Assembly: GCA_013361935.1 (NCBI GenBank)
Contig: JABFXC010000054.1
Location: 678 to 64,677, forward strand
Length of the DNA stretch: 64,000 nucleotides
Direction of reading: 5' to 3'
Source: Gemmatimonadaceae bacterium
GTDB taxonomy: Bacteria > Gemmatimonadota > Gemmatimonadetes > Gemmatimonadales > Gemmatimonadaceae
Both the position numbers and the translations under genes were made by a program. Of the stretch, positions 1,295 to 20,790 are shown piece by piece (positions within the stretch are counted from its first letter, which is position 1; each line of letters opens with the position of its first letter). A model generated the notes under the pieces. The model was not told where the DNA came from. It searched no databases and was given only the letters and a program-made list of their open reading frames with translations.

Positions 1295-1295
1295 C

Positions 1296-3725: not shown

Positions 3726-3727
3726 GG

Positions 3728-4147
3728 TCAGCCTCGGCCCTCGAGCAGATAGAAGGGGAAGACGCGGTTGTACGCCTCGTTCGTCACCTCGACCACGTAG
3801 TCGACGTGGACGAGGATCAGCTCCGGCGTCTCGTCGGATGCGACCGCGTCGACGCGCTCGAGGCGGATGCGCGGCTCCCAGTCGCTGAGCGCGCGCCGCA
3901 CCAGCTCGGCGATGCGCGAGCGCGTCGCCGGACCGTTCGGCTCGAACACGAGGTCGCGCACCCCCGCCCCGAACTCGGGGAGCATCACGCGCTCGCTCTG
4001 CGCGGTGAGCAGCACGATCTGGATCGCCTGCTCGATGTCCTCCTCGTAGCGCGCGTAGCGCAGCGATCCGCCCACGGGCTTCACGGGAAACGACCAGCCG
4101 ACGCCGAGATGCGCCTTCGGGTTGCGCTCGCCGGAGGGCGTCTTCAT
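3728..4147 (-). CDS. GPW/gp25-family baseplate protein (Afp9 equivalent)
   Basis: Last 139 codons of tracked ORF 3728..4894, starting MKTPSGERNPKAHLGVGWSFP. Contains LPEFGAGVRDLVFEP and SDWEPRI, typical of the gp25 lysozyme-like fold. ATGA overlap with the upstream spike gene. The remaining N-terminal part of the tracked ORF is Arg/Gly-rich shadow sequence. Confidence 0.85.
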   Translation of the reverse strand: MKTPSGERNPKAHLGVGWSFPVKPVGGSLRYARYEEDIEQAIQIVLLTAQSERVMLPEFGAGVRDLVFEPNGPATRSRIAELVRRALSDWEPRIRLERVDAVASDETPELILVHVDYVVEVTNEAYNRVFPFYLLEGRG

Positions 4148-4920
4148 ATCGCGACTCCGCCGGTGAACGGCGCCGGCGCCTCGTTCGGCGGCCGATGGCG
4201 GTGGAGCTTGTACGGCGTCCCGTCGATGATCGAGCTTCCCGCCGACGACATCATCGTGACGACGTTGCCGGTGATGGTGATCGTCGGCGCGCTGAGCTGG
4301 ATCGAGATCGACGACTCGATGGTCATCGCCCCCGGCTCCTGCATCGTGATCTGCGACGTCGGCGTCCGGATGCTGAGCTTCTGCCCGATGTCGTCGAGCT
4401 CGATGGTGCGCCCGCCGGCGCTCGCGAGGGTGACCTTGAAGCCGCCGACGGTGTCGTCGAGCTCGACGGAGTGCCCGTGGTTCGTGCGCAGCGTGATCTT
4501 GCCGCGGTTGGGCGCGTCGTCGAAGGTGAGCTCGTGGCCGCTCCGCGAGACGATGGTGCGGACGTCGTTGTCCGGCGACTGACGCGCTTGGGCGGGAGCC
4601 GTCGCGTCGCGGTTCCACACCGCGCCGAGGATGATCGGGATGTTCGCCTCCCCGGACTGGAAGCCGACGACGACCTCGTCGCCCTTCTCGGGAAAGAAGT
4701 GCATCCCGCGGTTGGCGCCGGCCATCGGCATCATCACCCGCGCCGGCGCCGAGCGGTCGTCGTCGTCCTGGCCGCTCATGCCGAGGAAGTGCAGCCGGTA
4801 GGTGCCGTCGTCCTCGATGGACACGACGCGCGCCGTGGCCAGCCCGCTCACCGGACGCTGGCGATCCTCCGCCGCGCGCGGGGCGAAGATGCACTCGAGG
4901 ATGTTGTCGAGCTCACTCAT
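4144..4920 (-). CDS. Baseplate spike, gpV/VgrG-like (Afp8 position)
   Basis: 258 aa. OB-fold region GLATARVVSIEDDGTYRLHF...PARVMMPMAGANRGMHFFPEKGDEVVVGFQSGEANIPIILGAVWN is followed by short beta-helix-like repeats (TFDDAPN, VELDDTVGG, IELDDIGQ). 4-nt overlaps with both neighbours. Confidence 0.85.
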   Translation of the reverse strand: MSELDNILECIFAPRAAEDRQRPVSGLATARVVSIEDDGTYRLHFLGMSGQDDDDRSAPARVMMPMAGANRGMHFFPEKGDEVVVGFQSGEANIPIILGAVWNRDATAPAQARQSPDNDVRTIVSRSGHELTFDDAPNRGKITLRTNHGHSVELDDTVGGFKVTLASAGGRTIELDDIGQKLSIRTPTSQITMQEPGAMTIESSISIQLSAPTITITGNVVTMMSSAGSSIIDGTPYKLHRHRPPNEAPAPFTGGVAI

Positions 4921-6323
4921 CGGGCGGATCCCTCGCGATAGGGCGGCAGCTCCATCCCCGGGCGCGACGCGGAGAAGCGCGTTCGCAGCCCGTCGGAGCC
5001 GAGCGTGTGCACGGTGCGGGTGACGTAGTAGAAGCCGTTGAAGGGCGGCCGATAGCCGCGGATCTCCACGTGCCGGCCCGGGCGCAGCCGCGGAAGCCCG
5101 ATCGCCGTCCCCTCGATGGTCAGGAGCTCGCGCGCCTTCTTCCGCAGCAGCGTCTGGGCGTACCAGGTGGCCCGCGTGTCGTCGAGGTTCGAGACGTTAG
5201 GCGGGCCGGCGCGATTCTCGCGCCCGGGAAGGAAGTGCGCGCGGACGAGCGGACCGGGAGTGAGGGTGCCGTCCACCGCCGGATCGACGTGGAGCTCGTC
5301 CTGCACGATCGCGCCGAGCGCGACGCCGCGGACTTCGCGCGGCGTGTGCGGATCGCGGTGCCGGCCGCGCACCTCGGCGGCGGTGAACTGGTCGACGACC
5401 TTCAGCGTCGGCGCGAACTCGAGCAGGCTCTGCTCGCGGTCGAGGCGGAAGATCACGTCCTGCCGCTCGATCGGGTTGGCGCGGCCGCGGTACGGCTCGA
5501 AGCGGAGCACCAGCGGCGCGTTGGTGCGGTCGAGGCTCGCGAACTCGAGGCAGACCTCGTAGTCGAGACGCTCGGCGAGCTTCTGGATGAACTCGAGGTA
5601 CGACTGTCCCTTCTGCACCGCGTCGTTCAGCCCCTGCGAGTCGTTCGTGGCGAAGGAGGGATGATCGACGAGCGGATCGGCGGGGGAGGAGATTGGATAG
5701 TGCGCGCGCTGGAGGACGCGGCGCACCATGCTCGTCTCGCTCAGCCGGTCGAGCTCGATGCGGCGCTCGGTGCGGTCCTTGAGCGTGTTGAGGTCGTCCT
5801 CGCCGGAGATCACGACCTGCGCGCCCTGGCCAGCGGCGAAGGTGAAGCGCATGTCGGTGATCGGGCCGGCGACCATCGGCACCCAGCGCTGCGGGTCGGC
5901 GGTGACGGGCGCGGCGGAGGCGGCGCGGTCGGGCCAGTAGCGGAAATCGACGCGCAGCCGGTCGCCAAAGCCGAGCACCGCGAAGTCGTCGTACTTGAAG
6001 CGCGGCCAGTACGGCGTGCGCCGCGGGTCGAGCCGCTCGCGGGCGTCGATGGGGCCGGCGCTGCCGCCCGTCGGATCATCGGAGGAGCGGTCCGCCGCGG
6101 TCGAGAGATACGCGTTGTTGAGGGTGAGCGAGTACGTGGCGAGCCCGCTGTTCGTGAGCGTCACCTCGGCGCGGACGACGTCGGCGTGGATGTCGGGCGG
6201 GAGGACGTCGCCGGCCTCGCCCTGGGGCTGGAGGGTGGCCGCGAGCTTGGCGAGGCGGACGCCGGGGGCGAAGTAGGCGCTCCCCGGACGCGGACCGTTA
6301 GGCGCTGGCGCGGTGACGGTCAT
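4917..6323 (-). CDS. Baseplate hub, phage late control D / gp27-like
   Basis: 468 aa. The C-terminus LLTIEGTAIGLPRLRPGRHVEIRGYRPPFNGFYYVTRTVHTLGSDGLRTRFSA resembles gpD-type hub proteins. Translationally coupled on both sides. Confidence 0.7.
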   Translation of the reverse strand: MTVTAPAPNGPRPGSAYFAPGVRLAKLAATLQPQGEAGDVLPPDIHADVVRAEVTLTNSGLATYSLTLNNAYLSTAADRSSDDPTGGSAGPIDARERLDPRRTPYWPRFKYDDFAVLGFGDRLRVDFRYWPDRAASAAPVTADPQRWVPMVAGPITDMRFTFAAGQGAQVVISGEDDLNTLKDRTERRIELDRLSETSMVRRVLQRAHYPISSPADPLVDHPSFATNDSQGLNDAVQKGQSYLEFIQKLAERLDYEVCLEFASLDRTNAPLVLRFEPYRGRANPIERQDVIFRLDREQSLLEFAPTLKVVDQFTAAEVRGRHRDPHTPREVRGVALGAIVQDELHVDPAVDGTLTPGPLVRAHFLPGRENRAGPPNVSNLDDTRATWYAQTLLRKKARELLTIEGTAIGLPRLRPGRHVEIRGYRPPFNGFYYVTRTVHTLGSDGLRTRFSASRPGMELPPYREGSAR

Positions 6324-6523
6324 ACGCGGCCCCGGCGCTGCAGCTCGCGCAGCTCGTCGTGGAGGACGTCGAGCACCAGCGAGCGAAGGCGCGCGCGCGA
6401 TCCCGGGTCGTTCTCGAGCAGGCGCAGCATCGCCTCGGCGCCGGCGGTGCCGGGCGCGCCGACGGGCGGCTCGTCGCCCGGGACGAGCTCCACTTCGCTG
6501 TGCACGCGATCGATCTGGAGCAT
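6320..6523 (-). CDS. Small conserved-position hypothetical protein of the eCIS operon (67 aa)
   Basis: MLQIDRVHSEVELVPGDEPPVGAPGTAGAEAMLRLLENDPGSRARLRSLVLDVLHDELRELQRRGRV. Fits exactly between the LysM and hub genes, with a 4-nt overlap downstream. No recognisable motif. Confidence 0.5.
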   Translation of the reverse strand: MLQIDRVHSEVELVPGDEPPVGAPGTAGAEAMLRLLENDPGSRARLRSLVLDVLHDELRELQRRGRV

Positions 6524-6533
6524 GGCGGCGTCC

Positions 6534-7178
6534 TCAGAGCGCGGGGATCCGCAGCGCGGTCCCCGGTGGCACGAACCGCGGGCGCTCGATGTCGTTCTCG
6601 CGGGCGATCGCCCGCCAGAGCCGCGGGTCGCCGTACGCCTCGCGCGCGAGCTGGGCGAGAGTCTCTCCCTCGCGCAGCACCCGCACGCGCGTGCGGTCGG
6701 GGCTGTGCAGCGCCATCCCGCGCAGCTGGACCTCCGGCGCCTGGTACGACTTGAACGTCGTCGTGACGCGCGCGCGGAGGACGGCCCCCGTCTCGCTGAA
6801 GAGCGTATAGCGCTCGCGCAGCTGCGTGACGACGCCGGTGAAGTGCACGTCGCCCCAGGTGAACAGACAGACCGGCGGCGCGTGCAGCTCGCTCTGCACC
6901 GTGACGAAGGTGCGCAGCGCGGCGAGCCGTCCCTCGACCGTCTTGTCGGGGGCCGCGCTCTGCCGCTTGTCCGTGCCGTCGAGGAAGAGCTCGAGCGTCA
7001 GCGTCTGCGCGTCGCCGCGCACGAACTGGAGCAGCGGCATCTGCAGCCCCGGCACCTGCAGCTCGGCGTAGGTGACGCCGCGGTCGACACCGTACTCCGT
7101 CGGGTTGAACTGCACCTCCACCGCCTCGGGCGCGGGGGAGACCGAGATGTTCTGGAGGGTGGCGAGGGCGAGGGTCAT
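6534..7178 (-). CDS. Tube-fold protein with C-terminal LysM domain (tube initiator-like, Afp7/Pvc7-like)
   Basis: 214 aa. N-terminal tube-like region FNPTEYGVDRGVTYAELQVPGLQMPLLQFVRG. C-terminal LysM-like VRVLREGETLAQLAREAYGDPRLWRAIARENDIERPRFVPPGTALRIP. Confidence 0.8.
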   Translation of the reverse strand: MTLALATLQNISVSPAPEAVEVQFNPTEYGVDRGVTYAELQVPGLQMPLLQFVRGDAQTLTLELFLDGTDKRQSAAPDKTVEGRLAALRTFVTVQSELHAPPVCLFTWGDVHFTGVVTQLRERYTLFSETGAVLRARVTTTFKSYQAPEVQLRGMALHSPDRTRVRVLREGETLAQLAREAYGDPRLWRAIARENDIERPRFVPPGTALRIPAL

Positions 7179-7180
7179 CG

Positions 7181-7789
7181 TCAGATCCCCAGCGCGTCCA
7201 TCGCCGCGCCAGCGCCGCCGGGCAGCATCGACGCGCCGACGCGATACAGCCCCTCGTGCGCCAGCTCCAGTGTCTCGATCGCGATCTCACTCGACTTCGC
7301 GTTGAGGCCGGGGCCGTGCATCTTCTCCGGCAGCGCGTTCCGGCAGAACCACACCGCGATCGGCAGCCGGTCGAGCACGGGAAGGCCGAACGAGGTCGGA
7401 CCGCCGGCGAGCGCGCTGATCCCCGTGCCGCGGTCGGTGAGCATGACGAGCACGTTCTTGCGCGCCGGGTCGGCCGTCTTGTAGAGCGTCGCGTAGTACC
7501 AGTCCCAGAGGTCGGGGTTCAGCGTCACCCCCCGCTTGAGAACGAGGTTGGGATACTTCCCCCACTTCACGAACTTTCGCGGCGCGGTGTTCGACCCGCC
7601 CTGCCGGTACTCCTCGGTCTCCATCTCGGCGTCGAGCCCCGAGACCTCGGAGAAGGTGCCGACGATCGCCGCCTTGGCGACGCCTAACGCCGCGCCGGCG
7701 ACGTCGGCGGCGCCCATGCTCGACAGCGGCTTGGCGTCGAGCATCATGACCGTGAAGTCGAAGACAGGGACGGGGTTGACGAGGGTCAT
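7181..7789 (-). CDS. Tail tube protein 2 (T4 gp19-like, Afp5 position)
   Basis: Last 202 codons of tracked ORF 7181..8515, starting MTLVNPVPVFDFTVMMLDAKPL. Motifs FSEVSGLDAEMETEEYRQGG and KYPNLVLKRG parallel tube protein 1. 2-nt gap to the upstream sheath gene. Confidence 0.85.
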   Translation of the reverse strand: MTLVNPVPVFDFTVMMLDAKPLSSMGAADVAGAALGVAKAAIVGTFSEVSGLDAEMETEEYRQGGSNTAPRKFVKWGKYPNLVLKRGVTLNPDLWDWYYATLYKTADPARKNVLVMLTDRGTGISALAGGPTSFGLPVLDRLPIAVWFCRNALPEKMHGPGLNAKSSEIAIETLELAHEGLYRVGASMLPGGAGAAMDALGI

Positions 7790-7791
7790 CG

Positions 7792-9633
7792 CTACTCCAG
7801 GACCTCGATCACGCCCTCGCTCCGGCCGAGGCGGAAGACGAGGAACTCTCCCGGCGCGGCGACCGCGACCCCGAGCTCGACGACGAAGCGCCCGGCGGCG
7901 ATCGACTCCGGCGGGTTCACGCTCGCGTCGCAGCGCACGTAGAACGCTTCCTCGGGGCGCTCGCCGCGCAGCACGCCCGCCTCGAAGAGCGGGACGAGCA
8001 CGCCGAGCGCGATCGTCGCGACGTGCATCCAGAGCGCCGGCGTGTTCGGCTCGAAGACCAGCGGCTCGAGCGCCGCGCGCATCCGCAGCTCGACGGCGGT
8101 GAGCACCCGCCGCACGGGCACGAAGCGCAGCCAGGTGTCGGTGGAGAGCGTGCGCGCGCCGAACAGCTGCACGCCGTAGCCTGGGTACGGACGCATCACG
8201 TTCACCGACGCGCCGGCGATCCCGCTCGCCCCCGGCTCGGGCGTGTAGAGCGCGGCGTGCGCGGCGTCGTCGACCGGCGCAGCGACGCCGACCACCTGCC
8301 GCAGCGTCTCGTTCGCCGGAGCGACGCCCGGCCCGCGCGCGAGGTCGCGCCGCGCGAGGACCCCCGCCGCGTACGCCGCCGGCGGCACGGTGAGCGTCGG
8401 CGCGCCGATCATCTCCTGCGTCAGCAGCCAGGGCCAGTACATCGCCCCCGCCGACATCTCGAGCGTGTCGGCGAACCCCTCGAGCTGGACGAGCCGGTCG
8501 AACTGCGCGATCCACTGCCGCGCCTCCGGCGCGCCCGGCGGGACGTAGCGGCCCGTCGCCGCGTCGGGCATCTCGGGGACGGCGAGCAGGAGCAGCATCC
8601 GCCAGCGCGTCTCGACGCAGCGCGCGAGGAGTGTCCGCTGCGTGGCGAAGAGAGGGCTCATCGCGCCGCCGGCGTAGAGCGGCATCGAGTCGAACAGCGG
8701 CAGCGTCACCGGCTCGCCGGCGACGTCGACCACCGCGCCGGAGGGCACGACGTCATCGCAGGGGATGAAGCACCCCTCGCGCTCCGGCGGCGCGAGCGTC
8801 ACCTGCCGCACCGGACGGTCGACGCGGCGCGCGTGGAGGTCGGGGACGTCGCAGGCGGTGACCTCGTCGAGGAGGAGCAGCCGCTCGAGCCCCGTCGCCT
8901 CGCGCTCCGGCACGCCGGGCACGCCGGCCATCTCGGCGCGCGCGCGATCGAGCTCCACGGCGTCGTCGAAGCGCGGGCGGCGCACGGTCTCCACCCAGCA
9001 GCGGCGGCCGCCGTTCGCGAAGTACGCGCGCACCGCCGAGCCGAGAAACGTTCCGTCGTCGCGCGGCTCGCCGAAGGCGAGCAGGTAGTCGCGCCAGTCG
9101 TCGCAGCGCGCCGCGTCCAGTGCCGGGAGCACCGTCATGCCTAACGCGCCGGCGTCGCGGCGGTAGACGATGTCCGCGACCCGCGCCCACGCGCGGTGCA
9201 TCCCCGGCATCGGGTTGACGCGGAGCTCGAGCTGCGCGTCGTCCGGTGCGCGCTCGGTCCCCGTCGCCGCCGCGTTCCCGCGCACGACCATCAGCTCGGC
9301 GAACGGTCCGTCCTGCTCGGCGGCGACGAGCGCGAAGACGATGCTCTCGCCGGCGAGCATCGGGATCCAGAGCGCGCCGCTCGACACGGCGAGGTTCCGC
9401 GTCTCCGGAACGAGCACGCGCGCGCCGCCGAGCACGAGCTGGAATCCGGCGACGTCGGCGCGGAAGTCGTGGCCCGTCGCCGGGCTTCCGGTCAGCGCCG
9501 ACGGCGTCGTCCCGTCGCGCACCCGCGGCTCGAGCCCGACGAAGCCGACGACGTCCGTGCGCGCGACGACCACCGGCGCCACGCGCGGACGCCGCTCGAC
9601 GTAGACCCCCGGGACGCGGTAGGCGACTCCCAT
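7792..9633 (-). CDS. Contractile tail sheath protein 2
   Basis: 613 aa. N-terminus MGVAYRVPGVYVERRPRVAPVVVARTDVVGFVG and C-terminal RFVPVRRVLTAVELRMRAALEPLVFEPNTPALW...GEFLVFRLG are sheath-family hallmarks. Confidence 0.85.
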   Translation of the reverse strand: MGVAYRVPGVYVERRPRVAPVVVARTDVVGFVGLEPRVRDGTTPSALTGSPATGHDFRADVAGFQLVLGGARVLVPETRNLAVSSGALWIPMLAGESIVFALVAAEQDGPFAELMVVRGNAAATGTERAPDDAQLELRVNPMPGMHRAWARVADIVYRRDAGALGMTVLPALDAARCDDWRDYLLAFGEPRDDGTFLGSAVRAYFANGGRRCWVETVRRPRFDDAVELDRARAEMAGVPGVPEREATGLERLLLLDEVTACDVPDLHARRVDRPVRQVTLAPPEREGCFIPCDDVVPSGAVVDVAGEPVTLPLFDSMPLYAGGAMSPLFATQRTLLARCVETRWRMLLLLAVPEMPDAATGRYVPPGAPEARQWIAQFDRLVQLEGFADTLEMSAGAMYWPWLLTQEMIGAPTLTVPPAAYAAGVLARRDLARGPGVAPANETLRQVVGVAAPVDDAAHAALYTPEPGASGIAGASVNVMRPYPGYGVQLFGARTLSTDTWLRFVPVRRVLTAVELRMRAALEPLVFEPNTPALWMHVATIALGVLVPLFEAGVLRGERPEEAFYVRCDASVNPPESIAAGRFVVELGVAVAAPGEFLVFRLGRSEGVIEVLE

Positions 9634-9639
9634 CGCGCG

Positions 9640-10083
9640 CTACTCGATGTCCAGCCGGTCGTAGGCCAGTTCCATCGTCTCGATCGCGATCTCGTTGCCT
9701 TTCGCGTTCAGCGATGGACCGGTGAGCTTCGTGCACCACGCGTTGGTCAGCTTCCACTTGAGCACCGCGTTGTGCTGGTCGTCGAGGAGGTTGATGGTGA
9801 CGTTGCGCGTCGGCGGGAACGCCGTCCCGCCGTCGCGCACCTCCTTGCGCCATTCCCAGAGGACGAGCGAGCCGGTGATCCCGCGCTTGCAGGTGCAGTT
9901 CGGGTACTTCTCGATGCCGGGGAGCTTGCGCACCGTGTTCATCGCGTCGGCGCCCTCGCGGTACTCGATCGGCGTGTTCTCGCTGTCGAGCCCCGAGACT
10001 TCCTGGAAGGCGGCGATCTGCGCCCCGTCGATCTCGACGGTGAAGTTGAAGGCGCTGTACGGATTCGGTCGTGTGATGGCCAT
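9640..10083 (-). CDS. Tail tube protein 1 (T4 gp19-like, Afp1 position)
   Basis: 147 aa. MAITRPNPYSAFNFTVEIDGAQIAAFQEVSGLDSENTPIEYREGAD...KYPNCTCKRGI is the canonical tube signature. Confidence 0.9.
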   Translation of the reverse strand: MAITRPNPYSAFNFTVEIDGAQIAAFQEVSGLDSENTPIEYREGADAMNTVRKLPGIEKYPNCTCKRGITGSLVLWEWRKEVRDGGTAFPPTRNVTINLLDDQHNAVLKWKLTNAWCTKLTGPSLNAKGNEIAIETMELAYDRLDIE

Positions 10084-10107
10084 GGGCGGCGCTCGGGAGG
10101 GCGGGGG

Positions 10108-12222
10108 TCAGGTCTGGGTCGCGAAGCCGGTGATCTGCTCGATGCGGAAGATGACGAACTCGGCCGGACGCACGATCGCGACGCCGATCTCACAGATGAG
10201 CCTGCCGTTCTGGACGTCGTCGACCGTCATCGTCGACTCGTCGCAGCGCACGCGGTACGCGTCCTCGGGGCGGCGGCCGAAGAGCGCGCCGTCGCGCCAC
10301 TGCGTGTGGAGGAAGGCGCTCACGCTGTCGACGACGCGGCTCCAGGTGTCCGGAGCGTTAGGCTCGAAGACCACCCACTGCGTGCCGCGGTCGATCGACG
10401 CCTCGAGAAAGATCAGGAAGCGGCGGACGTTGATGTAGCGGAACTCGGGATCGCTGGAGAGCGTGCGGCCGCCCCAGACCCGGATGCCGCGCCCCTCGAA
10501 GCGGCGGATGACGTCGACGCCGCGCGGATTGAGCACGTCCTGCTCGCCCGTCGTCACGTACGCGCGCAGCCCCGTCACCCCGCGCACGACCTCGTTCGCC
10601 GGCGCCTTCCACACCCCGCGGTCGTTGTCGACGCGCGCGTAGATGCCGACGACGTGCCCCGACGGAGGCAGCCGCAGCGTGTCGTCGCCGACGGGCACCT
10701 CGACCCACGGCGTGTAGTACGCCGCGTACGACGAGTCGTAGAGATTGCGCGCGGCGAGCAGCGCGTTCACCGACTGCGGGTCCGATGGCGCGTCGAGCAC
10801 GGCGAAGCGGTAGCGCAGCCGCTCGGCCTGCGCGATCAGCGCCGTCTGCACCAGCGCCTGCGTCTCGCCCGGCGCGGCGAGGATGCGCACGTCGTCGATG
10901 TCGGCGAGCGCCTGCAGCCCGGTGCGCAGCCCCGGCCCGCCGTCGACGCCGACGATGTGCGTCCGCGCGCCGACCACCGGTGCGCCATCGGCGCCGCTTC
11001 CCGGCGCCGGACCGCTCGCCTGGCCGTTGAGGTTCACCGGCATCACCGCCTCGGTCGCCGGATCTTCCGCCGAGCCGCCGAACGCCCACGGCGGCTCGAC
11101 CCAGACGAGGCTCGAGCGCTGGTTGATCACCGTCGAGTAGTGGCGGCGCCTGACGGCCGGCGCGGCGTTCCCGGTCCAGGCGAGCCCGCGGAACACCTCC
11201 GTCGTCCGCGACGCGGTGTCCTCGACGGTGACGTCGATCTCGCGCACGATGACGACGCCGGCGACCGTGACGTTGTTCACCGGGGCGCTCACGCGGACCC
11301 GGCTCCCGGGCAGGATCTCGCGCACCGTCAGCTGCGTCACGACCATCGCGCCGCCGTGGACGAGCATGATCGACGCGCCGGGATAGAGCGACGTCGTCGA
11401 CTGCAGCTGGATGATGTCCGTCGCCACGGCGATCGCCGCCGTCACCGCGACCGGAGGCCGGTCGGCGGGAACGACGGTGATCATCAGCCGGTTGCCCCAG
11501 TCGCCCGGGCTCCGCGCGTAGAAGCGCGGACCGGCCGCCGGAGTGACGGGCGCGGTCGCGCTCGAGAATCGCACGATCACCCGGTCGGGCTCGAGCAGCG
11601 TCGGCGTCGCGCCGGCGCCGACGGTCACCGTCACCGCGCCCGTCGCGAAGTCGACCGCCGTGATCCCCATCGCCGTGAGCGCGGTGGGACCGGCGCTGAT
11701 CGGGGCGCCGTTCGCGCCGGTGATCGACACCGTCGTCGTGCCGGCGGGCGTCAGCGGCGCGACGGGGCCGGTCGGGGCGATGCCGACGAGCGAGGAGAGG
11801 AAGAGAACGTTGGACCCGCTCCGCACCTCCACGGTGCTCCGCAGCCGCGTCACCGAGCCCTGGTTGAGCTGGTGCACGGCGAAGGCGAACCCCGGCCGCA
11901 GCGCGCGCGCGATGTAGGCGCGCCGTCCGCCGTTGTCGAAGAAGGCGCGTACCGCGTGGCCGAGGAAGCGGTCGGGGCCCGGCGCATCGGCGGGCGCGCC
12001 GAAGGTCCGCTGGTAGGCGCCGAAGTTCGTGACGAGCAGCGGCGCGTCGTCCGGCGTGATCGCGAAGCCGCCGCCGGCGCCCACCGGGGGCAGCACCCCC
12101 GGCGCCGGCCCGCGGTCCGATTCCCCGACGAAGCCGGCCGTGCTCGTGCTCACTCCCTCGATCGCCTTCAGCCGGGCGGGGATCTCCTCGATGAATACGC
12201 CTGGGGATAGATACTCGGGCAT
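10108..12222 (-). CDS. Contractile tail sheath protein 1 (long form, 704 aa)
   Basis: MPEYLSPGVFIEEIPARLKAIEGVSTSTAGFVGESDRGP at the N-terminus. C-terminal INVRRFLIFLEASIDRGTQWVVFEPNAPDTW...AEFVIFRIEQ. Carries a large Thr/Ala/Val-rich central insertion. Confidence 0.9.
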   Translation of the reverse strand: MPEYLSPGVFIEEIPARLKAIEGVSTSTAGFVGESDRGPAPGVLPPVGAGGGFAITPDDAPLLVTNFGAYQRTFGAPADAPGPDRFLGHAVRAFFDNGGRRAYIARALRPGFAFAVHQLNQGSVTRLRSTVEVRSGSNVLFLSSLVGIAPTGPVAPLTPAGTTTVSITGANGAPISAGPTALTAMGITAVDFATGAVTVTVGAGATPTLLEPDRVIVRFSSATAPVTPAAGPRFYARSPGDWGNRLMITVVPADRPPVAVTAAIAVATDIIQLQSTTSLYPGASIMLVHGGAMVVTQLTVREILPGSRVRVSAPVNNVTVAGVVIVREIDVTVEDTASRTTEVFRGLAWTGNAAPAVRRRHYSTVINQRSSLVWVEPPWAFGGSAEDPATEAVMPVNLNGQASGPAPGSGADGAPVVGARTHIVGVDGGPGLRTGLQALADIDDVRILAAPGETQALVQTALIAQAERLRYRFAVLDAPSDPQSVNALLAARNLYDSSYAAYYTPWVEVPVGDDTLRLPPSGHVVGIYARVDNDRGVWKAPANEVVRGVTGLRAYVTTGEQDVLNPRGVDVIRRFEGRGIRVWGGRTLSSDPEFRYINVRRFLIFLEASIDRGTQWVVFEPNAPDTWSRVVDSVSAFLHTQWRDGALFGRRPEDAYRVRCDESTMTVDDVQNGRLICEIGVAIVRPAEFVIFRIEQITGFATQT

Positions 12223-12232
12223 TGCCCCTCCC

Positions 12233-12949
12233 TCACGGGATCGTGATGAACAGCGTGGATGGCTGGCCGATCGTGACCGGCAGCGGGAACACGGGTGACG
12301 CCGGCGCGACGAGCGCGGCGAACGCGGGCGGCGCGCGGAGCTCGACGCCGATCGACGCCGCGGCGCGGATCGCCGACGCCGGCGGGGGCGAGAGCGTCCG
12401 CACGTTAGGCAGCCGCAGGAGAAAGTCGCCGCCGGCGTCGGTGTACCCGTACGGCGCGCCGGCGGGGATCGGCGGCTCGCCGAGCGTGACGCGGTAGCCG
12501 GCCGCGGGCGCGCCCGCCGCGGTGCGGACGTTCCCGATCACCGCGGTCTCCCCCACCGGCAGGGCGAGCTGGCGCGTCGGCCAGAGACGGCGCGTGACGA
12601 TGAAGTCGCTCCGCACGGGAAAGAGGCCGGCGATCGGCCGCGGCAGCACCACCGCCGCCGGCTCGCGGTCGGCGTACTCACCGCCCGGCGCGCTGACGAC
12701 GACGTCCACCGCGCCGACCGGAGGAAGCGTCGCGTTCGACGCGAACAGCCGGTACGTCCCGTCGGCGGCGCGCCGCGCCGTCCATGGAAGCCGCGGCATC
12801 TCCGGGTACGGCGGGGCGATCGTCTCGACGCGCACGTCGAGGGGAAGCGTGATGGGCGCGCCGGTGAACGCGTCGACGAAGCGGAACGCCACCGCGAGGC
12901 GGTGGCGCACCCACGGATGCGAGATCGGCGCGAAGCCCGGCGCGGTCAT
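12233..12949 (-). CDS. Hypothetical eCIS-associated protein with carboxypeptidase-regulatory-like beta-sandwich
   Basis: Last 238 codons of tracked ORF 12233..13957, starting MTAPGFAPISHPWVRHRL. The segment GNVRTAAGAPAAGYRVTLGEPPIPAGAPYGYTDAGGDFLLRLPNV resembles a CarboxypepD_reg-like domain. ATGA overlap with the DUF4255 gene. Confidence 0.6.
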   Translation of the reverse strand: MTAPGFAPISHPWVRHRLAVAFRFVDAFTGAPITLPLDVRVETIAPPYPEMPRLPWTARRAADGTYRLFASNATLPPVGAVDVVVSAPGGEYADREPAAVVLPRPIAGLFPVRSDFIVTRRLWPTRQLALPVGETAVIGNVRTAAGAPAAGYRVTLGEPPIPAGAPYGYTDAGGDFLLRLPNVRTLSPPPASAIRAAASIGVELRAPPAFAALVAPASPVFPLPVTIGQPSTLFITIP

Positions 12950-13515
12950 GCGGGCACTCCGATCCGCGCGTCGATCACCGGCGCCGGCACCGGTCCCGGC
13001 GGCGGCGAGATGCCGACCACGCGCGCCATGTACGTGAGCGAGAGACGATACGGCACGTCGGCCGCGTCCCAGATGCGGTAGTGATCGTCGAGGCCCAGCG
13101 TCTCGAGCACGAGCTGCACGCCCTCGCCCGCCTCCCACGCGCTCCCGACGAGGTTCGCCGGCCCGAGCTCGGCGCGGTCGTACAGCACCTGCAGCACACG
13201 GCCGAGGATCAGCAGCTCCGCCGCGGTCTCCCGCGCCCACGCGGTGATCAGGTAGCACAGCTCGAGCGGGAGCGGCTGCCGCTGCACGCGGCCGTCGGGA
13301 AGGGTCCGCCTCCGCTCGTTGCGCATCTGCGGGTTGATCGCCACGCGGTAGAGGAAGACGGTGAGCGCGGGACGATCGGGGTTCACGTAGTCCCCGAAAT
13401 CGTCGGGCGTCGCGGCGACGATGCGCAGCGGGTCCACCATCGCCGCCGGGATCCCCGCACGCAGCAGTGTGAGGATCGTCTCGGTCATGTCGCGGAGGAC
13501 GTCGGCGCTCGCCAT
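12946..13515 (-). CDS. DUF4255 / Pvc16 N-terminal domain protein (tail terminator/cap, eCIS hallmark)
   Basis: 189 aa. MASADVLRDMTETILTLLRAGIP...PALTVFLYRVAINPQMRN...LPLELCYLITAW matches the conserved DUF4255 pattern. First structural gene of the operon. Confidence 0.8.
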   Translation of the reverse strand: MASADVLRDMTETILTLLRAGIPAAMVDPLRIVAATPDDFGDYVNPDRPALTVFLYRVAINPQMRNERRRTLPDGRVQRQPLPLELCYLITAWARETAAELLILGRVLQVLYDRAELGPANLVGSAWEAGEGVQLVLETLGLDDHYRIWDAADVPYRLSLTYMARVVGISPPPGPVPAPVIDARIGVPA

Positions 13516-13518
13516 CGC

Positions 13519-13920
13519 TCAGTCCGTACCGCGCTCGACCGGCGCGAGCCGCGAGAGGATCGCCGCGCCGAGTCCGGCCGGCGTGACGTCGGAGACGCTG
13601 CGATGCGTCGGCGTGAGCTCGTGCAGCCGGGCGCTCGCGCCGCGCTCGCTGACGAGGAGGATGCGCGTCCGCGGCGACTGGAAGAGGGCGCGGACGATTT
13701 CGTCGCGCGCGGTCGCGTCGCCGTCGCCGAGGGCACCGAGTATCACACCGTCCGCCCGCGTGCGCGCGACGATCGCGCCGATGTCGTCGTGGCCCTGGTC
13801 CTCCTCGACGTCGACGCGCGGGTGTCGCTCGAGCGCGTCGCGGAGCAGGTCGCGCAGCAGGCGCGGCATGCGCGCCAGCACGATGCGGATTCTGGTCGGA
13901 AGCTCGGCGGGAAGCGTCAC
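13519..13920 (-). CDS. Stand-alone degenerate receiver-like protein
   Basis: 133 aa with a CheY-like alternation (IRIVLARMP..., ADGVILGA..., RILLVSE) but lacking the acidic DD pair and the conserved Lys. Its stop is only 3 nt from the DUF4255 start, so it is probably co-transcribed. Confidence 0.55.
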   Translation of the reverse strand: MTLPAELPTRIRIVLARMPRLLRDLLRDALERHPRVDVEEDQGHDDIGAIVARTRADGVILGALGDGDATARDEIVRALFQSPRTRILLVSERGASARLHELTPTHRSVSDVTPAGLGAAILSRLAPVERGTD

Positions 13921-14014
13921 GCCCGAGAAGTGCGGCCGACCGCTCCTCGTCCGCCATGCACCTTCCGGTGCATCATGGATGGAGGCGGGATCTACACCCT
14001 CGCCTCCATCCCGC

Positions 14015-14749
14015 TCAGACGCGCGGCGATTCTTCCGGGGTCGAGCGCGCCGCGAGCGTGCGCGGCGCGTGGCGGCGCAGCTGGGCCACCGCCTCGGCGC
14101 GGCCGGAGACGCCGAGCTTGTCGAGGATGTTGTGGACGTGCTGCTTCACCGTCGCCAGCTCGATCCCGAGCCGCGCGGCGATCGCCTTGTTCGAGAGCCC
14201 GCCGTCGAGCAGCTCGGCGATGTCGCGCTCGCGCGCGGTGAGCGCGAGTGGGAGCTGGGCGGCGGCGAGCGGCCGGCGGCCTAGCTGGCGGAAGAGCGGT
14301 GCGGCCATGCACGACGAGCAGACCGTGCCCCCGTCGGCGACGCACTCGACCGCGCTCACCAGGTCGGCGAGCGATCCGTGGCTCGGCACGTAGCCGTCGA
14401 CGCCCGCCTCGGCGCAGGCGAGGACGTTCGCCGCGACCTCGATCAGCGCGTAGGCGACGACGCGCACCGCCGGCGCCTCGCGCACCGCGCGGCGGACGAG
14501 CGAGAGGGCGTCGGGCATGGCCATGTCGAGCACCGCGACGTCGACGCCGCCCGCGCGCATCCGCTCGAGCGCGGCGTCCGCGTTGTCCGCCGACGCGATC
14601 ACCTGCACGCAGCCGCGTCCGCTCAGGCTCTGCGCCAGCCCCTCGCAGTAGAGCCTAACGTCCGACACGACCAGCACGGCGATCGCGCGGGGACGAGCCT
14701 TGGCCGGCTCGAAGCCGCTCGCCGATCCCGACGAGGTGATGGGCGACAT
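14015..14749 (-). CDS. NarL/LuxR-family response regulator with atypical receiver domain
   Basis: 244 aa. LuxR HTH: LTARERDIAELLDGGLSNKAIAARLGIELATVKQHVHNILDKLGV. The receiver retains VAVLDMAMPD, but DD is SD (LVVSD), the T/S position is Ala (VVAYAL), and the Lys position reads GYVPSH. Confidence 0.85.
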   Translation of the reverse strand: MSPITSSGSASGFEPAKARPRAIAVLVVSDVRLYCEGLAQSLSGRGCVQVIASADNADAALERMRAGGVDVAVLDMAMPDALSLVRRAVREAPAVRVVAYALIEVAANVLACAEAGVDGYVPSHGSLADLVSAVECVADGGTVCSSCMAAPLFRQLGRRPLAAAQLPLALTARERDIAELLDGGLSNKAIAARLGIELATVKQHVHNILDKLGVSGRAEAVAQLRRHAPRTLAARSTPEESPRV

Positions 14750-14941
14750 GATGTCACCGCGAATCCATTGTCACGAGCGCCGGCCCCGCGACGGGCCGGC
14801 ATGCGATCGGCAATCTGCGTGATTTGTCGCACAAGGGAAGAGGGAACTTCGCGCCCGGTTAACCGTCGCTAATAAACAACTGAGGGGCGGCGGAGGTCCG
14901 CGTGCCCAGCGCGGCGGCCTAACGTTCCACCGACGGTTTGC

Positions 14942-17900
14942 CTAACGGTGGCAGCCGTGCTCCATCGACTCGCGGACCGACCCTTCGATGTCGTCCCCGA
15001 AGGTGGTGTCGAAGACGTAGTACGCGATGAGCCCGCCGGCGAACCCGACCACCGCGCCGACGGTCCCGCAGGCGACCGTTCCGACGCCGGGCACGACCAC
15101 CGTGCATGCGCCGCCCGCGCCCTCGCCGCCGACGATCGCCGCCGCGATCGCCGTCGCCAGCGCGCCGCCGGCCCCGCCGACGGTCCCCGAAACGGAGGCA
15201 CGCGCGGTCTTCGACCAGTAGTCGCTCGGCCCGAAATCGGTGCCGAGCAAGGATTCCTGCAGATACATCCCCCCGAGCGTGATCCCGCCCGACGCGACCC
15301 CGCCCCACGCCGTGCTCCCGGCGAAGCGCGCCGTCGGCGCGAGCATGCTCACCGGCGCCACCGACATCCCGCGCGCGGCGAGCATCTCCGCGGTGAGCAG
15401 CCCGCCCTGCGAGATCCCCATCCGCACGAGCTGGTCGCCGGTCACGGAGATCACCCCGCCCGCGCCGCCGACCCCGACGTTGAGCAGATACCGCCGCCCC
15501 GCGTACGGATCGGCGTTCCACGTCTGCGCCATCTGCGGAAGCCCGAGCAGCGCGCTCGTCGCGAGCCCCACCGCGCCGCCGACCCCCGCCGGCCTGCCGA
15601 GCGTCGCCGGGACGCCGTGCAGCTGCGCTTCCATCAGCTCCGGCGTCGCGATGCGCTCGAAGTACTGCCGCTGCAGCTGCGTCGCCGCGGTGCGGCCGGC
15701 CGGCGTGTCGGCGAACCCGGCGAAGTCGGACGCGCCGCGGAAATCGAAGCGCTGCCGGTAGTCGAGCAGCGGTCGGAGATGCGTCTCGGCCCCGATCCCG
15801 CTCGAGACGACCTGCGACCGGGCACGGTTGGCGACCTGCGCGATCGCGGCGCGGTAGCGGGCCTCCGAGATCTTTCCCGCGACGTAATCGGCGTTCAGCG
15901 CGGTGAAATCGCCGTACGTCACGACCGCCCCCGACGTCCCCTTGTGCTGCACCTGGATCGGCTGCTGTTGCATGAGCGCGGTGAGGATAGGCTCGTAGGC
16001 CGCCGGTCCGCCGCGGATCGAGGCGACGAGCGAATCCTGCGCCGCGGCGAGCGTCTCCGGGTTCACCGCGAAGCGCGTGTTGAGGAGCATCTCCTGCAGC
16101 GTCAGGTTCGGGTTCCCCTGCGTGCGCAGCAGCGCGAGCGCCTGCAGCCGCAGCGCCGGATCGCCCTGCGCGAACGCGACACGCCACGCTTCCTGGACCG
16201 TCGCCAGGCTCGGCGTCCCCCCCGGCGTTCCGGGGAGCTGCGTCTTCAGCTGCGTGTTCAGCCCGGTCGTCGGATCGAGGAAGTCGTATACCGGCGCGTT
16301 CGCCTGCACGTCGTTGAGGTCGATCACCCTCGGCGTCGTCGATCCCGGCATGATGGTCGCCGAGGCGTAGAGCGCCTCGCCCATCGCGCCGCGCCAGTTC
16401 ACGCGAAAGCCGCCGACCTGATCCGGGGTGAATGCGTAGGGCCCGGCGGTGACGACGGGGTCGACGAAGGTCCCCCAGTTGTATCCGGTGGCGGGAGTTC
16501 GCGGCAGCCCTCCCGCGAGCGCGAACCCGCCGCCGATCTGCGGCATTGCCGTGAGGCCTAACGGCGGAAGGAGGGGCGACATCGTCGTTCCCTGGCCGCC
16601 GAGCGACAGAAGTCCCGCCGTCGTCGAGACCGCGGGCGTCATCTGCGCGACGGGCTGCGGCGGGACCGACAGCACCATCGGCCCGGCCGTCGCCGCGGTC
16701 TGCCGCGCGAAGAACTCGGACGGCGACATCCGTGGGATCCCGAGCCGCTGGAGCATCCGGTCGAACTGGTCGGGGGTGACCACGAGCGCGCCACCCGTCG
16801 ACGCGCTCGTCGCCTCGGCATTCGAGTCGGCGCGGTCGATCACCAGCGTCGACGGGATGAGCCCCGGCTCGATCCGGTAGAGCGTCGCCGGCACGGCACT
16901 CACGTCCTCGTTCAGCCACGCGTGACCCGCCTGCGCGCGCCGGTCGCGCTCCGCGCCGACGCGACGCGCGAGGTTCGCGTAGTCCCAGTACTGATCCTCG
17001 CCGTGCCGGTGCGCCGCGTCCTTCGCCCGGATGTAGTCATGCGCCAGCCGCCAGTCGTCGAGGAGCCCCTGGTTGTCGAGCGAGCGCTCGTCCACCGCGC
17101 ACGGATCGAACGCCTGCGCGAGCGTCGCGTAATCGGGGAGCCAGCCACCATCGGTGACACTGGTGTCCGTCGGCCCGGGGGTCCCACCGGCCAGCGTTCC
17201 GTAGTCGGGGAGCCGGCCCGCATCCGAGCTTCCGCCGTCGGCGGTGCCTGCGTCGGCGGTGCCGGCGTCGGTCCCGTGATGCTCCTCCTGCCGCTGCACG
17301 CTCGGCCGCGCGATCGTGCCCTCGCGCTGCTGCACCACATGAACCAGCTCGTGCGCGATCAGCTCGCGACCGGCGCGCGACCGGGGCGCATATTCTCCCT
17401 CGCCGAACACGATGTCGCGGCCGGTCGTGAAGGCACGCGCGCCGAGTGCAGCGGCCGCGTCGGCCGCCGCGCCCCCGGTGTGCACGCGCACCTCATCGAG
17501 CGGCGCGCCGAGTCTCGGCTCGACGAAGGCGCGCGTCTCGCCGTCGAGCGGACGGCCGGCACCGAGCGCGGCAAGCAGCGCCGCCGGCGCATCGCTCCCC
17601 GCGCCGCCCGTGTCGCCGCGCTTCAGGAGCAGCTCCTCCTCGCACTCGGCGCAGAGCGGACGCCCAGCGGCGCACGCCGCGCAGCGCTGCACCATTCCAG
17701 CCGAGCCCGCCCCGCGCGGACTCACCGCCGCGTGCTCCTCCCCGCCGACGAGCCGCTGCGCGACTTCGTTCGCCTCGCGCTCGCGTGCATCCGTCGCGGC
17801 GACGACGCGTGGCTTCGCGCGGATCGCGAGGGCGCGGAGCAGCCTGCGGTTTCCGCGCGCGAGCAGCGCGTCGAGCGCGCCGCGGCCAGACGCGCGTCCG

Positions 17901-17968
17901 CCGCCGCGCGGGGAACTTCCCCGCGCGCGCGCCGGTTGAGCCTCCGCCGTGGTCGTTCGCCCGGACAT
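14942..17968 (-). CDS. DUF4157 (zincin-like, HExxH) domain protein with large unknown middle region and glycine-zipper hydrophobic C-terminus; candidate eCIS cargo/toxin
   Basis: 1008 aa. Disordered basic N-terminus, then Cys cluster QRCAACAAGRPLCAECEEE. DUF4157 core ETRAFVEPRLGAPLDEVRVHTGGAAADAAAALGARAFTTGRDIVFGEGEY...ELIAHELVHVVQQ. The last ~200 aa are Gly/Ala/Val-rich (GVGGAGGVISV, GGVASGGITLGGMY, GTVGGAGGALATAIAAAIVGGEGAGG, GTVGAVVGFAGGLIAYYVF). Confidence 0.85.
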   Translation of the reverse strand: MSGRTTTAEAQPARARGSSPRGGGRASGRGALDALLARGNRRLLRALAIRAKPRVVAATDAREREANEVAQRLVGGEEHAAVSPRGAGSAGMVQRCAACAAGRPLCAECEEELLLKRGDTGGAGSDAPAALLAALGAGRPLDGETRAFVEPRLGAPLDEVRVHTGGAAADAAAALGARAFTTGRDIVFGEGEYAPRSRAGRELIAHELVHVVQQREGTIARPSVQRQEEHHGTDAGTADAGTADGGSSDAGRLPDYGTLAGGTPGPTDTSVTDGGWLPDYATLAQAFDPCAVDERSLDNQGLLDDWRLAHDYIRAKDAAHRHGEDQYWDYANLARRVGAERDRRAQAGHAWLNEDVSAVPATLYRIEPGLIPSTLVIDRADSNAEATSASTGGALVVTPDQFDRMLQRLGIPRMSPSEFFARQTAATAGPMVLSVPPQPVAQMTPAVSTTAGLLSLGGQGTTMSPLLPPLGLTAMPQIGGGFALAGGLPRTPATGYNWGTFVDPVVTAGPYAFTPDQVGGFRVNWRGAMGEALYASATIMPGSTTPRVIDLNDVQANAPVYDFLDPTTGLNTQLKTQLPGTPGGTPSLATVQEAWRVAFAQGDPALRLQALALLRTQGNPNLTLQEMLLNTRFAVNPETLAAAQDSLVASIRGGPAAYEPILTALMQQQPIQVQHKGTSGAVVTYGDFTALNADYVAGKISEARYRAAIAQVANRARSQVVSSGIGAETHLRPLLDYRQRFDFRGASDFAGFADTPAGRTAATQLQRQYFERIATPELMEAQLHGVPATLGRPAGVGGAVGLATSALLGLPQMAQTWNADPYAGRRYLLNVGVGGAGGVISVTGDQLVRMGISQGGLLTAEMLAARGMSVAPVSMLAPTARFAGSTAWGGVASGGITLGGMYLQESLLGTDFGPSDYWSKTARASVSGTVGGAGGALATAIAAAIVGGEGAGGACTVVVPGVGTVACGTVGAVVGFAGGLIAYYVFDTTFGDDIEGSVRESMEHGCHR

Positions 17969-18097
17969 GGATTAGTGTCCAGTCATGAGCGGGAAGTGTC
18001 GCGTGCCGCGCCGCATCGCGCCGATGCGCGGCGACGACCAGCATAGCGTTTGCCATGCGTCGTGAACAGGGGGCCGGCTTCGACGATCGGAGGATTC

Positions 18098-18643: not shown

Positions 18644-18720
18644 GGGTCGGGGGTCGGAGGTCGGGGGGTCAGCGGTCAACGCCGACGGCTGACTCCCGAC
18701 CCCTGACCCCCTGACTGTTG
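18644..18720. terminator. Imperfect long palindrome built from GGGGTC(R) heptamer repeats between convergent msrA and radical SAM genes
   Basis: ggggtcgggggtcggaggtcggggggtcagc...gctgactcccgacccctgaccccctgac. The right arm overlaps the last codons of the radical SAM ORF. Coordinates are approximate. Confidence 0.4.
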
Positions 18721-20658: not shown

Positions 20659-20790
20659 GCAGACCTCCGGCATTAGTCGCTGTCCGCGACTATATAGCGC
20701 CTTCCTGGCCCGTTGTCACCCCGAGCCGCATCCGCCGCTCGAGCCCGCCGCGCGCCGCACCCCTCGCCGGAGGACTGTCCGGCCGCCATC

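Follow-up and report, generated by a model that had tools for sequence, protein, structure and literature searches.

A DUF4157 protein at the edge of a Gemmatimonadaceae contractile injection locus: a probable effector with a cryptic nuclease-like core and a conserved glycine-zipper tail

What does an extracellular contractile injection system (eCIS) carry when the only recognisable part of its candidate cargo is a DUF4157 domain? We addressed this question for a 1008-residue DUF4157 protein of a Gemmatimonadaceae bacterium, encoded on contig JABFXC010000054.1 (assembly GCA_013361935.1) within a stretch of 64,000 nucleotides that we refer to as the window. DUF4157 is a core or marker domain of eCIS that is N-terminal in many predicted toxins, often with very long linkers and often with no immunity gene (PMC8213781). 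No other single feature predicts eCIS-associated toxins (EATs) as strongly, and 983 predicted EATs have DUF4157 only (PMC11297309). An earlier note on this DNA, made from the letters alone, had pointed to this association and had proposed a candidate novel eCIS cargo toxin with a core of about 600 residues without recognised motif and a tail suggestive of membrane insertion or pore formation. We find that the protein is probably an eCIS cargo or effector, and we lean, with less assurance, towards the fuller account that it is loaded into the particle and brings as its payload a nuclease-like domain of the contact-dependent growth inhibition (CDI) type together with a glycine-zipper domain for membrane insertion. 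The gene itself is of the expected kind at the expected place; what the analysis adds is the dissection of its domains and the cryptic nuclease.

Single-sequence searches of Pfam, NCBIfam, PHROGs and PDB sequences matched nothing in the protein beyond PF13699 (the DUF4157 domain), leaving about 790 residues unmatched, including all of residues 283-1008, and a six-sequence profile likewise found no match among PDB sequences. AlphaFold2 (AF2) modelled the whole protein poorly from an alignment of 6 sequences (predicted local distance difference test, pLDDT, 49); a second run, on residues 283-1008 with a 44-sequence alignment, reached a pLDDT of 83.7 and a predicted template modelling score (pTM) of 0.64. 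By this model and by composition, the 600-residue core consists of two disordered linkers and two folded modules, A and B, ahead of the tail, module C. The first half of module B (B1) is nuclease-like. Foldseek returned no PDB match to the second model below E = 0.5 and nothing from PDB and BFVD below E = 0.28; as modelled, the fold as a whole is without a recognised relative.

Module B (residues 512-790) is the most confidently folded of the modules, with an alpha/beta structure and pLDDT of 91-98. When the 44-sequence profile was compared with PDB sequences, module B gave weak matches to CdiA-CT toxins and to a restriction enzyme. A module-B profile of 22 sequences matched 4ZQU (CdiA-CT YpIII; E = 0.0045) and 4G6U (CdiA-CT TA271/EC869-o11; E = 0.025), placing the family motif 'NFPvFDf...g.lvSVKt' on 'NFKtYDYfD....vSaKS' of CdiA-CT. 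The CdiA-CT TA271/YpIII toxins are Zn2+-dependent PD-(D/E)xK DNases with the active site E177, D198, S209 and K211 (PMC9086364, Table 1). In the profile alignment as printed, D562 falls on D198, Q573 on S209 and K575 on K211, while E531, in the preceding helix, is six positions off E177 in the hhalign alignment. For hhalign, we used a template of PF21111 (CDI_toxin_EC869_like) built from four sequences recovered from plasmid records. The 22-sequence profile matched this template with a probability of 77.8% (E = 1.9e-5; 116 of 140 columns) and a 42-sequence B1 profile with 86.4% (E = 4.7e-6), the two alignments covering 116-117 columns and also pairing the later 'AKF' and 'LAV(N/P)' elements. 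Scores for B1 were 38-39, compared with at most 15.6 for 40 column-shuffled templates and 9 for the reversed template, and modules A, B2 and C gave no signal; B2 also had no Pfam or PDB match. Going by these alignments, B1 is very probably a true, if remote, homologue of the CdiA-CT TA271/YpIII DNases.

The elements of B1 in the AF2 model (helix 515-539, strands 549-550, 563-565 and 570-574, helices, strand 631-635 and helix 637-653) follow the canonical order of a restriction-endonuclease core. E531 lies in the first helix, D562 starts the second strand, Q573-x-K575 is in the third, and a late strand reads 'FAVN'. Where B1 is present among 44 homologues, E531 is kept in 39/39, D562 in 42/42 and Ser or Gln at 573 in 42/42. 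Position 575 is split: Lys in 20 of 42 family members, forming an 'S-V-K-T' subtype (Q-L-K-T in our protein), and Thr in 19, of which the 15 with His after the Thr form an 'S-V-T-H' subtype. With Thr in place of the catalytic Lys, some members may therefore have changed or lost their activity; in the Thr-His pair at 575/576, the catalytic residue may have shifted, or the site may be inactive. For the Gemmatimonadaceae protein itself, we consider retention of DNase activity to be at about even odds. Since the core holds a cryptic nuclease-like domain, toxicity, if any, need not be membrane-based.

Module C is rich in glycine (21%), alanine (14%) and valine (10%), and AF2 predicts helices of 30-43 residues at 786-815, 823-865, 871-908 and 914-948, followed by a beta hairpin and, at lower confidence, a last helix at 967-1003. 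A hydrophobic hairpin is made up of residues 926-948 and the first half of the last helix with F976 (Kyte-Doolittle peak 1.83). The description of the tail as Gly/Ala/Val-rich and hydrophobic held; its GxxxG-like spacing did not stand out by number, with 12 such motifs compared with 9.4 +/- 2.4 in composition-preserving shuffles (P = 0.2). It is their conservation that departs from chance. No other part of the protein is as strongly conserved across the family as this module, where a stripe of every fourth residue along the last helix (G971, G975, G979, Y983, D987, G991, E995, R999 and E1003) is kept at each position in 34-43 of 44 homologues, the four glycines in 43/44, and is followed by a conserved 'GE.GC' at the C-terminus. 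The stripe is a true conserved glycine zipper on one face of the last helix and speaks for helix-helix packing or oligomerisation, and the charged continuation of the helix (D987, E995, R999, E1003) suggests that it is partly soluble. Membrane insertion of module C can reasonably be inferred. A pore-forming role would rest on hydrophobicity, the predicted long helices and the one conserved zipper; searches of Pfam, PHROG, PDB and BFVD found no homology to a known pore-former or glycine-zipper family.

Could the tail nevertheless be the whole toxin, pore-forming or depolarising, with A and B as scaffolding or targeting parts and the nuclease core dead? The conservation of module C, the highest in the family, its two hydrophobic segments and its long Gly/Ala-rich helices would fit, as would its presence in proteins in which our home-made module hidden Markov models (HMMs) detected neither A nor B, and the catalytic Lys is missing in about half of the family. 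Depolarising glycine-zipper toxins such as EsxX provide a precedent (PMC12744356). We consider such a purely membrane-active toxin unlikely: homology to a known family of pore-formers or zippers was not found, the density of GxxxG is explained by composition, and the membrane immunity protein that typically accompanies such toxins does not adjoin the gene. In addition, the invariance of E531 and D562 and the confident fold of B argue that this module is under functional constraint.

We next considered how the modules are distributed among relatives. A search with the whole protein retrieved 105 proteins, all but two of which match only residues of about 40-250, that is, a conserved N-terminal motif and DUF4157 (BLAST re-check); the exceptions are P0002, a more distant relative that is homologous over its full length at 28% identity, and P0095, which also matches the tail. 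With residues 270-1008 as query, four relatives matched over their full length at 44-47% identity; Neoroseomonas lacus is the source of one. We then built a profile from the C-terminal 726 residues and compared it with 1.84 billion cluster representatives, of which 226 matched, 53 at E<=1e-30. Mapping the module HMMs onto the 150 of these that were listed, we found about 45 with a complete DUF4157-A-B-C layout, many with DUF4157-A and another end, and some in which C was present, with or without B, and module A went undetected. Two close relatives (Neoroseomonas and Falsiroseomonas) came from a scan of a genome collection and three from a metagenome scan; searching a word index with the profile of 44 sequences contributed few more. 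No relatives were found by tblastn in a phage collection (50,697 records) or a plasmid collection.

Among the 150 representative clusters listed, the large majority have module A directly behind DUF4157. It carries the motifs (F)DPC..L.N, GE..YYDY.NL.RRL..ER and GH.WL. What comes after it varies: in Pfam scans of 54 DUF4157-A relatives, the C-termini included PT-HINT/Hint in 15/54, HopA1 in 3 and Tse3_N in 2. Module A is therefore best seen as a common domain of many effectors, with B-C as one payload among several. If it is a general adaptor, it would be a candidate handle for loading foreign cargo. A catalytic pair of Cys290 and His349 in module A was entertained and dropped, as neither residue is kept in distant members.

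Hint/intein-like domains are also part of this family. More than half of the 44 aligned members, as well as many DUF4157-A relatives, end in such a domain at the extreme C-terminus (P0112, P0120, P0124, P0125 and P0130, and also P0156 and P0175-P0198; loci L013:7742-11200, L014:5885-9070 and L015:10001-13276), and no toxin domain follows it; our protein has no Hint domain. With a C-terminus such as '...HGC|FAPHTPV...HNKVF' in P0112, the terminal Hint looks like a device for Hedgehog-style self-cleavage of the effector C-terminus and not like the usual pre-toxin HINT arrangement.

All nine loci of the family with usable context (L001, L004, L008, L010, which is partial, L011/L015, L012, L013, L014 and the window) are eCIS cargo regions. 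The earlier note had named homologues lying mostly away from eCIS loci as grounds for refutation; no homologue was found away from one. In five of the loci (L001, L004, L008, L011/L015 and L012) the family gene directly follows, or converges with, a gene for an Afp15-like WHD+AAA ATPase. The order 632, 950, 497, AAA, family gene is conserved among these five, as a rule with a sigma-54 activator alongside. L013 has the baseplate genes closest to those of the window's locus (P2_I 50% identical) and there a 579-aa gene precedes the family gene, with no ATPase between them. Second DUF4157 genes are frequent companions: L001:10001-15327 holds two tandem paralogues (892 and 883 aa), both with full DUF4157-A-B-C, beside the ATPase; a 471-aa DUF4157 gene adjoins the family gene in L004; a DUF4157-AHH nuclease toxin lies beside it in L014 and a DUF4157-OmpA protein near it in L015; and in L012 it is followed by an unrelated DUF4157 protein (about 12118-15192). 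The latter has a Gly-rich hydrophobic block of its own ('MIATMGLGGIGAVGELGLGGSMLLGGGIGIV...'), and DUF4157 cargos may carry such segments repeatedly. Regulators differ by locus: the window has a LuxR/GerE-family protein, and L001, L004, L008, L010 and L012 have sigma-54 enhancer-binding proteins, which in the proteobacterial-type loci are 53-79% identical to one another. As the earlier note had observed for the window, no immunity gene follows, and the same is true across the family loci; a tblastn search with CdiI over the window and 10 related loci gave nothing below E = 0.3, and no small downstream ORF is conserved.

The N-terminal features that had been described were all found. Residues 1-60 are of low complexity with a net charge of +10 and pLDDT of 27-31 (below 35), from which disorder is read, and they include no Sec-like hydrophobic stretch; the 1008-aa protein has neither a signal peptide nor an N-terminal anchor. 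The CxxC...CxxC cluster (Cys96, Cys99, Cys106 and Cys109) is kept in part among close homologues, as CxC....CxxC in the alignment, and is possibly a metal knuckle. The DUF4157 domain has a pLDDT of 72-84 and contains HELVH at residues 206-210 (17339-17353); its zincin-like metallopeptidase character is putative. Of the linkers, residues 218-282 are not conserved, with gaps and variation in the homologue alignment, and residues 441-511 vary in length between homologues.

What this analysis shows is which domains make up the protein, how B1 relates to the CDI DNases, how far the family is conserved and that it is linked to eCIS; that the protein is loaded, cuts nucleic acid and enters a membrane, and what kind of target it has, is what we infer. 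In the account that we favour, the protein would be made in the cytoplasm, without a Sec signal, and its disordered basic N-terminal stretch of about 60-130 residues would serve as the sequence for loading into the tube lumen, as judged from AlgoCIS Cgo1/Cgo2. DUF4157 and module A would form a carrier part common to many eCIS effectors, with a possible role in processing, chaperoning or refolding. After contraction, the payload of B1 (E531/D562/K575) and domain C would act on the target. Module C would insert into the membrane through the 926-989 hairpin and self-associate through the G971xxxG975xxxG979 face, and could thereby carry or anchor the nuclease domain at or across the target cytoplasmic membrane, or itself damage the membrane.

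Several observations weigh against this account. None of the loci has an immunity gene near the family gene, although an antibacterial DNase would usually come with one. Our protein has Gln where the TA271 active site has Ser, in addition to the loss of the catalytic Lys in 19/42 members; single-sequence Pfam scans of the protein and 22 relatives gave no PF21111 match even at E<=10; and no PD-(D/E)xK structure is among the top Foldseek matches listed for the AF2 model. Cargo genes usually have a 3' position, whereas this gene is found at the 5' edge. No gene for an Afp15-like AAA+ ATPase is visible in the sequenced part of the locus (window 1-14749 and L006:12432-20081); should the locus really lack one, cargo that depends on the ATPase for loading would have to enter in some other way. 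Lastly, the position of the family gene is unusually fixed for a 'variable' cargo, being the same spot in the five syntenic ATPase loci, and close members are 44-47% identical across two phyla (28% for the distant full-length relative). Fixed position and high identity could equally mean that the protein is an accessory part of the machine.

Such a part might be a conserved translocator in the tube or on the spike, likened to phage tape-measure or ejection proteins and to Tme and Sle1, with the helical tail as a conduit or anchor for co-packaged DUF4157 toxins or for the particle tip. Beyond the fixed place after the ATPase and the missing immunity genes, this would suit the second, variable DUF4157 protein that usually adjoins (the 471-aa gene, the AHH and OmpA fusions and the L012 ORF). 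Streptomyces DUF4157 proteins bind spike and baseplate proteins (PMC11126660, PMC13277306), and BFVD matches include tape-measure and glycine-zipper proteins, although these are weak and not significant. We hold this to be improbable, as related loci have a separate gene (497-579 aa) in the tape-measure position, no PHROG or tape-measure homology was detected, the gene is neither the largest ORF nor placed between the tube and baseplate genes, AlgoCIS particles assemble without needing their DUF4157 proteins (PMC8894135), and the nuclease-like active-site residues are conserved. An identity as the tape measure proper was rejected: the gene does not belong to the structural block, its size is exceeded by that of a 1225-aa ORF, PHROG gave no match, BFVD tape-measure matches have E>1, and tblastn against the 50,697 phage records was empty.

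An effector that translocates itself would combine the two functions. Here the zipper domain would oligomerise in the target cytoplasmic membrane and form a conduit for its own nuclease, and possibly for the second, neighbouring DUF4157 toxin as well, as a built-in translocon comparable to phage tape-measure or ejection proteins. This would explain the fixed position beside the ATPase as well as the missing immunity gene, the protein being inactive until unfolded, ejected and inserted into a membrane, and in more than half of the family the terminal Hint would also let the protein cleave itself, in the Hedgehog manner, where the zipper helix ends. We hold this version, too, to be improbable. 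Very improbable, finally, is a role on the producer side, as a membrane-anchored DUF4157 metalloprotease that helps particles to be released, cells to lyse or the CIS to be anchored to the producer's membrane: the C-terminal hairpin could anchor in the producer inner membrane, eCIS release needs lysis, to which EATs have been proposed to contribute (PMC8213781, discussion), and the gene adjoins the regulator at the 5' end of the locus, but the protein lacks both a signal peptide and an anchor at its N-terminus, its architecture and the context of its family are those of cargo regions, many relatives have polymorphic-toxin features (PT-HINT, HopA1), and a nuclease-like domain has no obvious role in release.

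Comparison with characterised DUF4157 proteins places the protein in the known class of DUF4157 eCIS effectors. AlgoCIS Cgo1 and Cgo2, which consist of a disordered N-terminal domain, DUF4157 and a C-terminal domain, fill the tube lumen (PMC8894135); their loading needs the N-terminal domain, and DUF4157 is dispensable (bioRxiv 10.64898/2026.05.27.728243). The Gemmatimonadaceae protein has the same disordered N-terminus, central DUF4157 and large variable C-terminal region and is encoded in an eCIS cluster, and paired DUF4157 genes, as for the Cgo proteins, are common in the loci of its family. This architecture and the nine eCIS loci support the cargo reading of the earlier note. In contrast to our protein, modules A, B and C are not described in Cgo1/Cgo2, the sequence relation being established for DUF4157 only, and lumen loading, proven there, is proposed here by analogy. 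The toxicity of Cgo1 is independent of its HExxH motifs (PMC8894135).

With the CdiA-CT DNases TA271 and YpIII (4G6U, 4ZQU; PF21111), the protein shares the PD-(D/E)xK core and the succession NF.x(F/Y)D ... S.K ... (A)KF ... LAV(P/N) over about 116 columns. It differs in that the domain is internal and not C-terminal, an eCIS takes the place of CdiA/CdiB, no CdiI-like gene is present, Gln replaces Ser209, and the similarity is detected by profile methods only, below Pfam thresholds. Fusions of DUF4157 to such a domain have a precedent in the PD-(D/E)xK DNase domain BaCT (PMC7073777). Like other DUF4157 EATs, the BaCT fusions included, our protein has DUF4157 near the N-terminus, a long linker and a C-terminal payload and is encoded near eCIS core genes; unlike them, it has the layout of its own family (A, B1, B2 and C, with or without a terminal Hint), with parts absent from Pfam and without a Foldseek match. 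The novelty that had been claimed is thus partial: the payload architecture was not previously described, but DUF4157 effectors and PD-(D/E)xK fusions were known.

Membrane-inserting segments also occur in this class. Sle1, a CIS cargo of S. lividans, has a C-terminal transmembrane hairpin (PMC13277306), and Tme of S. davawensis (BN159_7576) is a DUF4157 effector joining transmembrane helices and a nuclease (PMC11126660). Tme resembles our protein in its N-terminal DUF4157, predicted membrane-inserting helices, nuclease domain and lack of a described immunity gene. However, Tme is about 2250 aa long, largely disordered or coiled-coil, encoded between the tube and baseplate genes, and ends in an EndA-like H-N-N nuclease, whereas the Gemmatimonadaceae protein has 1008 aa, is encoded outside the structural block and has an internal PD-(D/E)xK-like domain, a C-terminal hydrophobic domain and no tape-measure homology. 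EsxX, also an effector of a secretion system, has a similar conserved GxxxGxxxG in a hydrophobic C-terminal helix (PMC12744356); unlike EsxX-type toxins, our protein shows no sequence or fold homology to them, has no adjacent membrane immunity gene, and its helix continues into a charged stripe.

The dissection matters since eCIS particles are engineered as protein-delivery tools, and most natural cargos amount to DUF4157 plus nothing recognisable. One such protein is here resolved into a conserved and widespread architecture of a shared carrier module (A), a cryptic CDI-type nuclease fold and a structurally unmatched zipper domain. If the tail inserts and moves or anchors the nuclease, the way in which cargos of an eCIS pass the final membrane of a Gram-negative target would become clear, and the tail might then be a portable translocation module. 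D562, K575 and G975 emerge as concrete residues for point mutants.

Table. Features of the DUF4157 gene and of the adjoining eCIS locus, with positions in the window
Feature	Position	Strand	Evidence
Whole gene, DUF4157/eCIS_core protein, 1008 aa	14942..17968	-	ATG at 17968, TAG at 14942-14944
Residues 1-60, disordered Arg/Ala/Gly-rich stretch, putative eCIS loading sequence	17789..17968	-	Composition, AF2 pLDDT
Cys96-x2-Cys99-x6-Cys106-x2-Cys109 cluster	17642..17683	-	Sequence inspection
Residues 140-217, PF13699 eCIS_core (formerly DUF4157), zincin-like domain	17318..17551	-	hmmscan E=1.3e-31, 109 bits
Residues 218-282, low-complexity Gly/Thr/Asp/Ala linker	17123..17317	-	Composition; pLDDT 22-28
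Module A, residues 283-440, two long helices and small sheet	16649..17122	-	AF2 pLDDT about 85-96
Residues 441-511, disordered Gly/Thr/Pro-rich linker	16436..16648	-	pLDDT 30-33 for ~441-487
Module B1, residues about 512-655, probable PD-(D/E)xK (restriction-endonuclease-like) core	16004..16435	-	Profile methods
Module B1, residues at catalytic positions: E531, D562, Q573, K575	16244-16378	-	Alignment, PMC9086364
Module B2, residues 656-790, alpha/beta and helical region	15599..16003	-	AF2 pLDDT mostly >90
Module C, residues 791-1008, Gly/Ala-rich helical domain	14945..15598	-	Composition, AF2, conservation
Hydrophobic hairpin, residues 926-989	15002-15193	-	Kyte-Doolittle segments 926-948 and 967-989
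Final helix, residues 967-1003, i+4 stripe	14960..15070	-	Conservation among 44 homologues
LuxR/GerE-family response regulator	14015..14749	-	PF00196 E=5.8e-15, PF00072 E=3e-11
eCIS structural operon	1296..13920	-	Pfam; continues past left edge of window
133-aa ORF	13519-13920	-	Strong coding GC3
Pvc16 cap	12946-13515	-	Pfam
238-aa ORF	about 12233-12950	-	Strong coding GC3; weak CarboxypepD_reg-like match
Sheath	10108-12222	-	Pfam
Tube	9640-10107	-	Pfam
Second, divergent sheath-like gene, 613 aa, after tube gene	7792-9633	-	PHROG tail sheath E=2.8e-35
gp19 tube and CIS_tube genes	between 613-aa sheath-like gene and VgrG/GPD	-	Pfam
VgrG/GPD	4917-6323	-	Pfam
base_V and gp25	between VgrG/GPD and Baseplate_J	-	Pfam
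Baseplate_J	1296-3725	-	Pfam

The window has a GC content of 72-73% and is crowded with spurious overlapping open reading frames (ORFs). We regard the 1008-aa ORF as a real gene because its GC content at third codon positions (GC3) is 0.91 against this background, with a continuous frame-specific signal. The protein has an exact database match, NUQ92471.1, 'MAG: DUF4157 domain-containing protein [Gemmatimonadaceae bacterium]', and carries the sole DUF4157 domain in the window.

On its 3' side, on the same strand, come the regulator, the 133-aa ORF, the Pvc16 cap, the 238-aa ORF, the sheath and the tube, then the second sheath-like gene, two tube-family genes, VgrG/GPD, base_V, gp25 and Baseplate_J. 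The gene had been placed directly upstream of the eCIS on the same strand; strand and edge position are right, but the regulator and the 133-aa ORF intervene, so that the Pvc16 cap gene is two genes away and the sheath gene four. Overlapping contigs (L006) extend the operon by P2_I (688 aa) and then by genes of 422 and 1225 aa and a truncated gene of 197 aa. The 613-aa sheath-like gene stays below Pfam thresholds (E about 4e-4), and the two ORFs that flank the cap gene had no PHROG or NCBIfam match. GerE regulators have been described as eCIS-associated (PMC8213781), and the LuxR/GerE response regulator is likely the regulator of this eCIS.

Upstream of the DUF4157 gene lies a divergent gene for the methionine sulfoxide reductase MsrA (18050-18643, +), which begins 81 bp from its start codon, followed by metabolic genes unrelated to eCIS. 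A B12-binding radical SAM (DUF4070) gene is found beyond MsrA (18676-20673, -); both are probably unrelated to the eCIS. With unrelated genes beyond it and eCIS genes downstream, the DUF4157 gene is the outermost gene of the cluster.

A minor observation concerns the CDI toxins themselves. On the Salmonella Rubislaw plasmid pATCC10717 (L016:925-2365), an unannotated ORF encodes an EC869/YpIII-type CdiA-CT nuclease (PF21111, E=5.5e-54). Since the next gene downstream is annotated as a CDI immunity gene, the ORF is an orphan toxin module absent from the plasmid's gene table.

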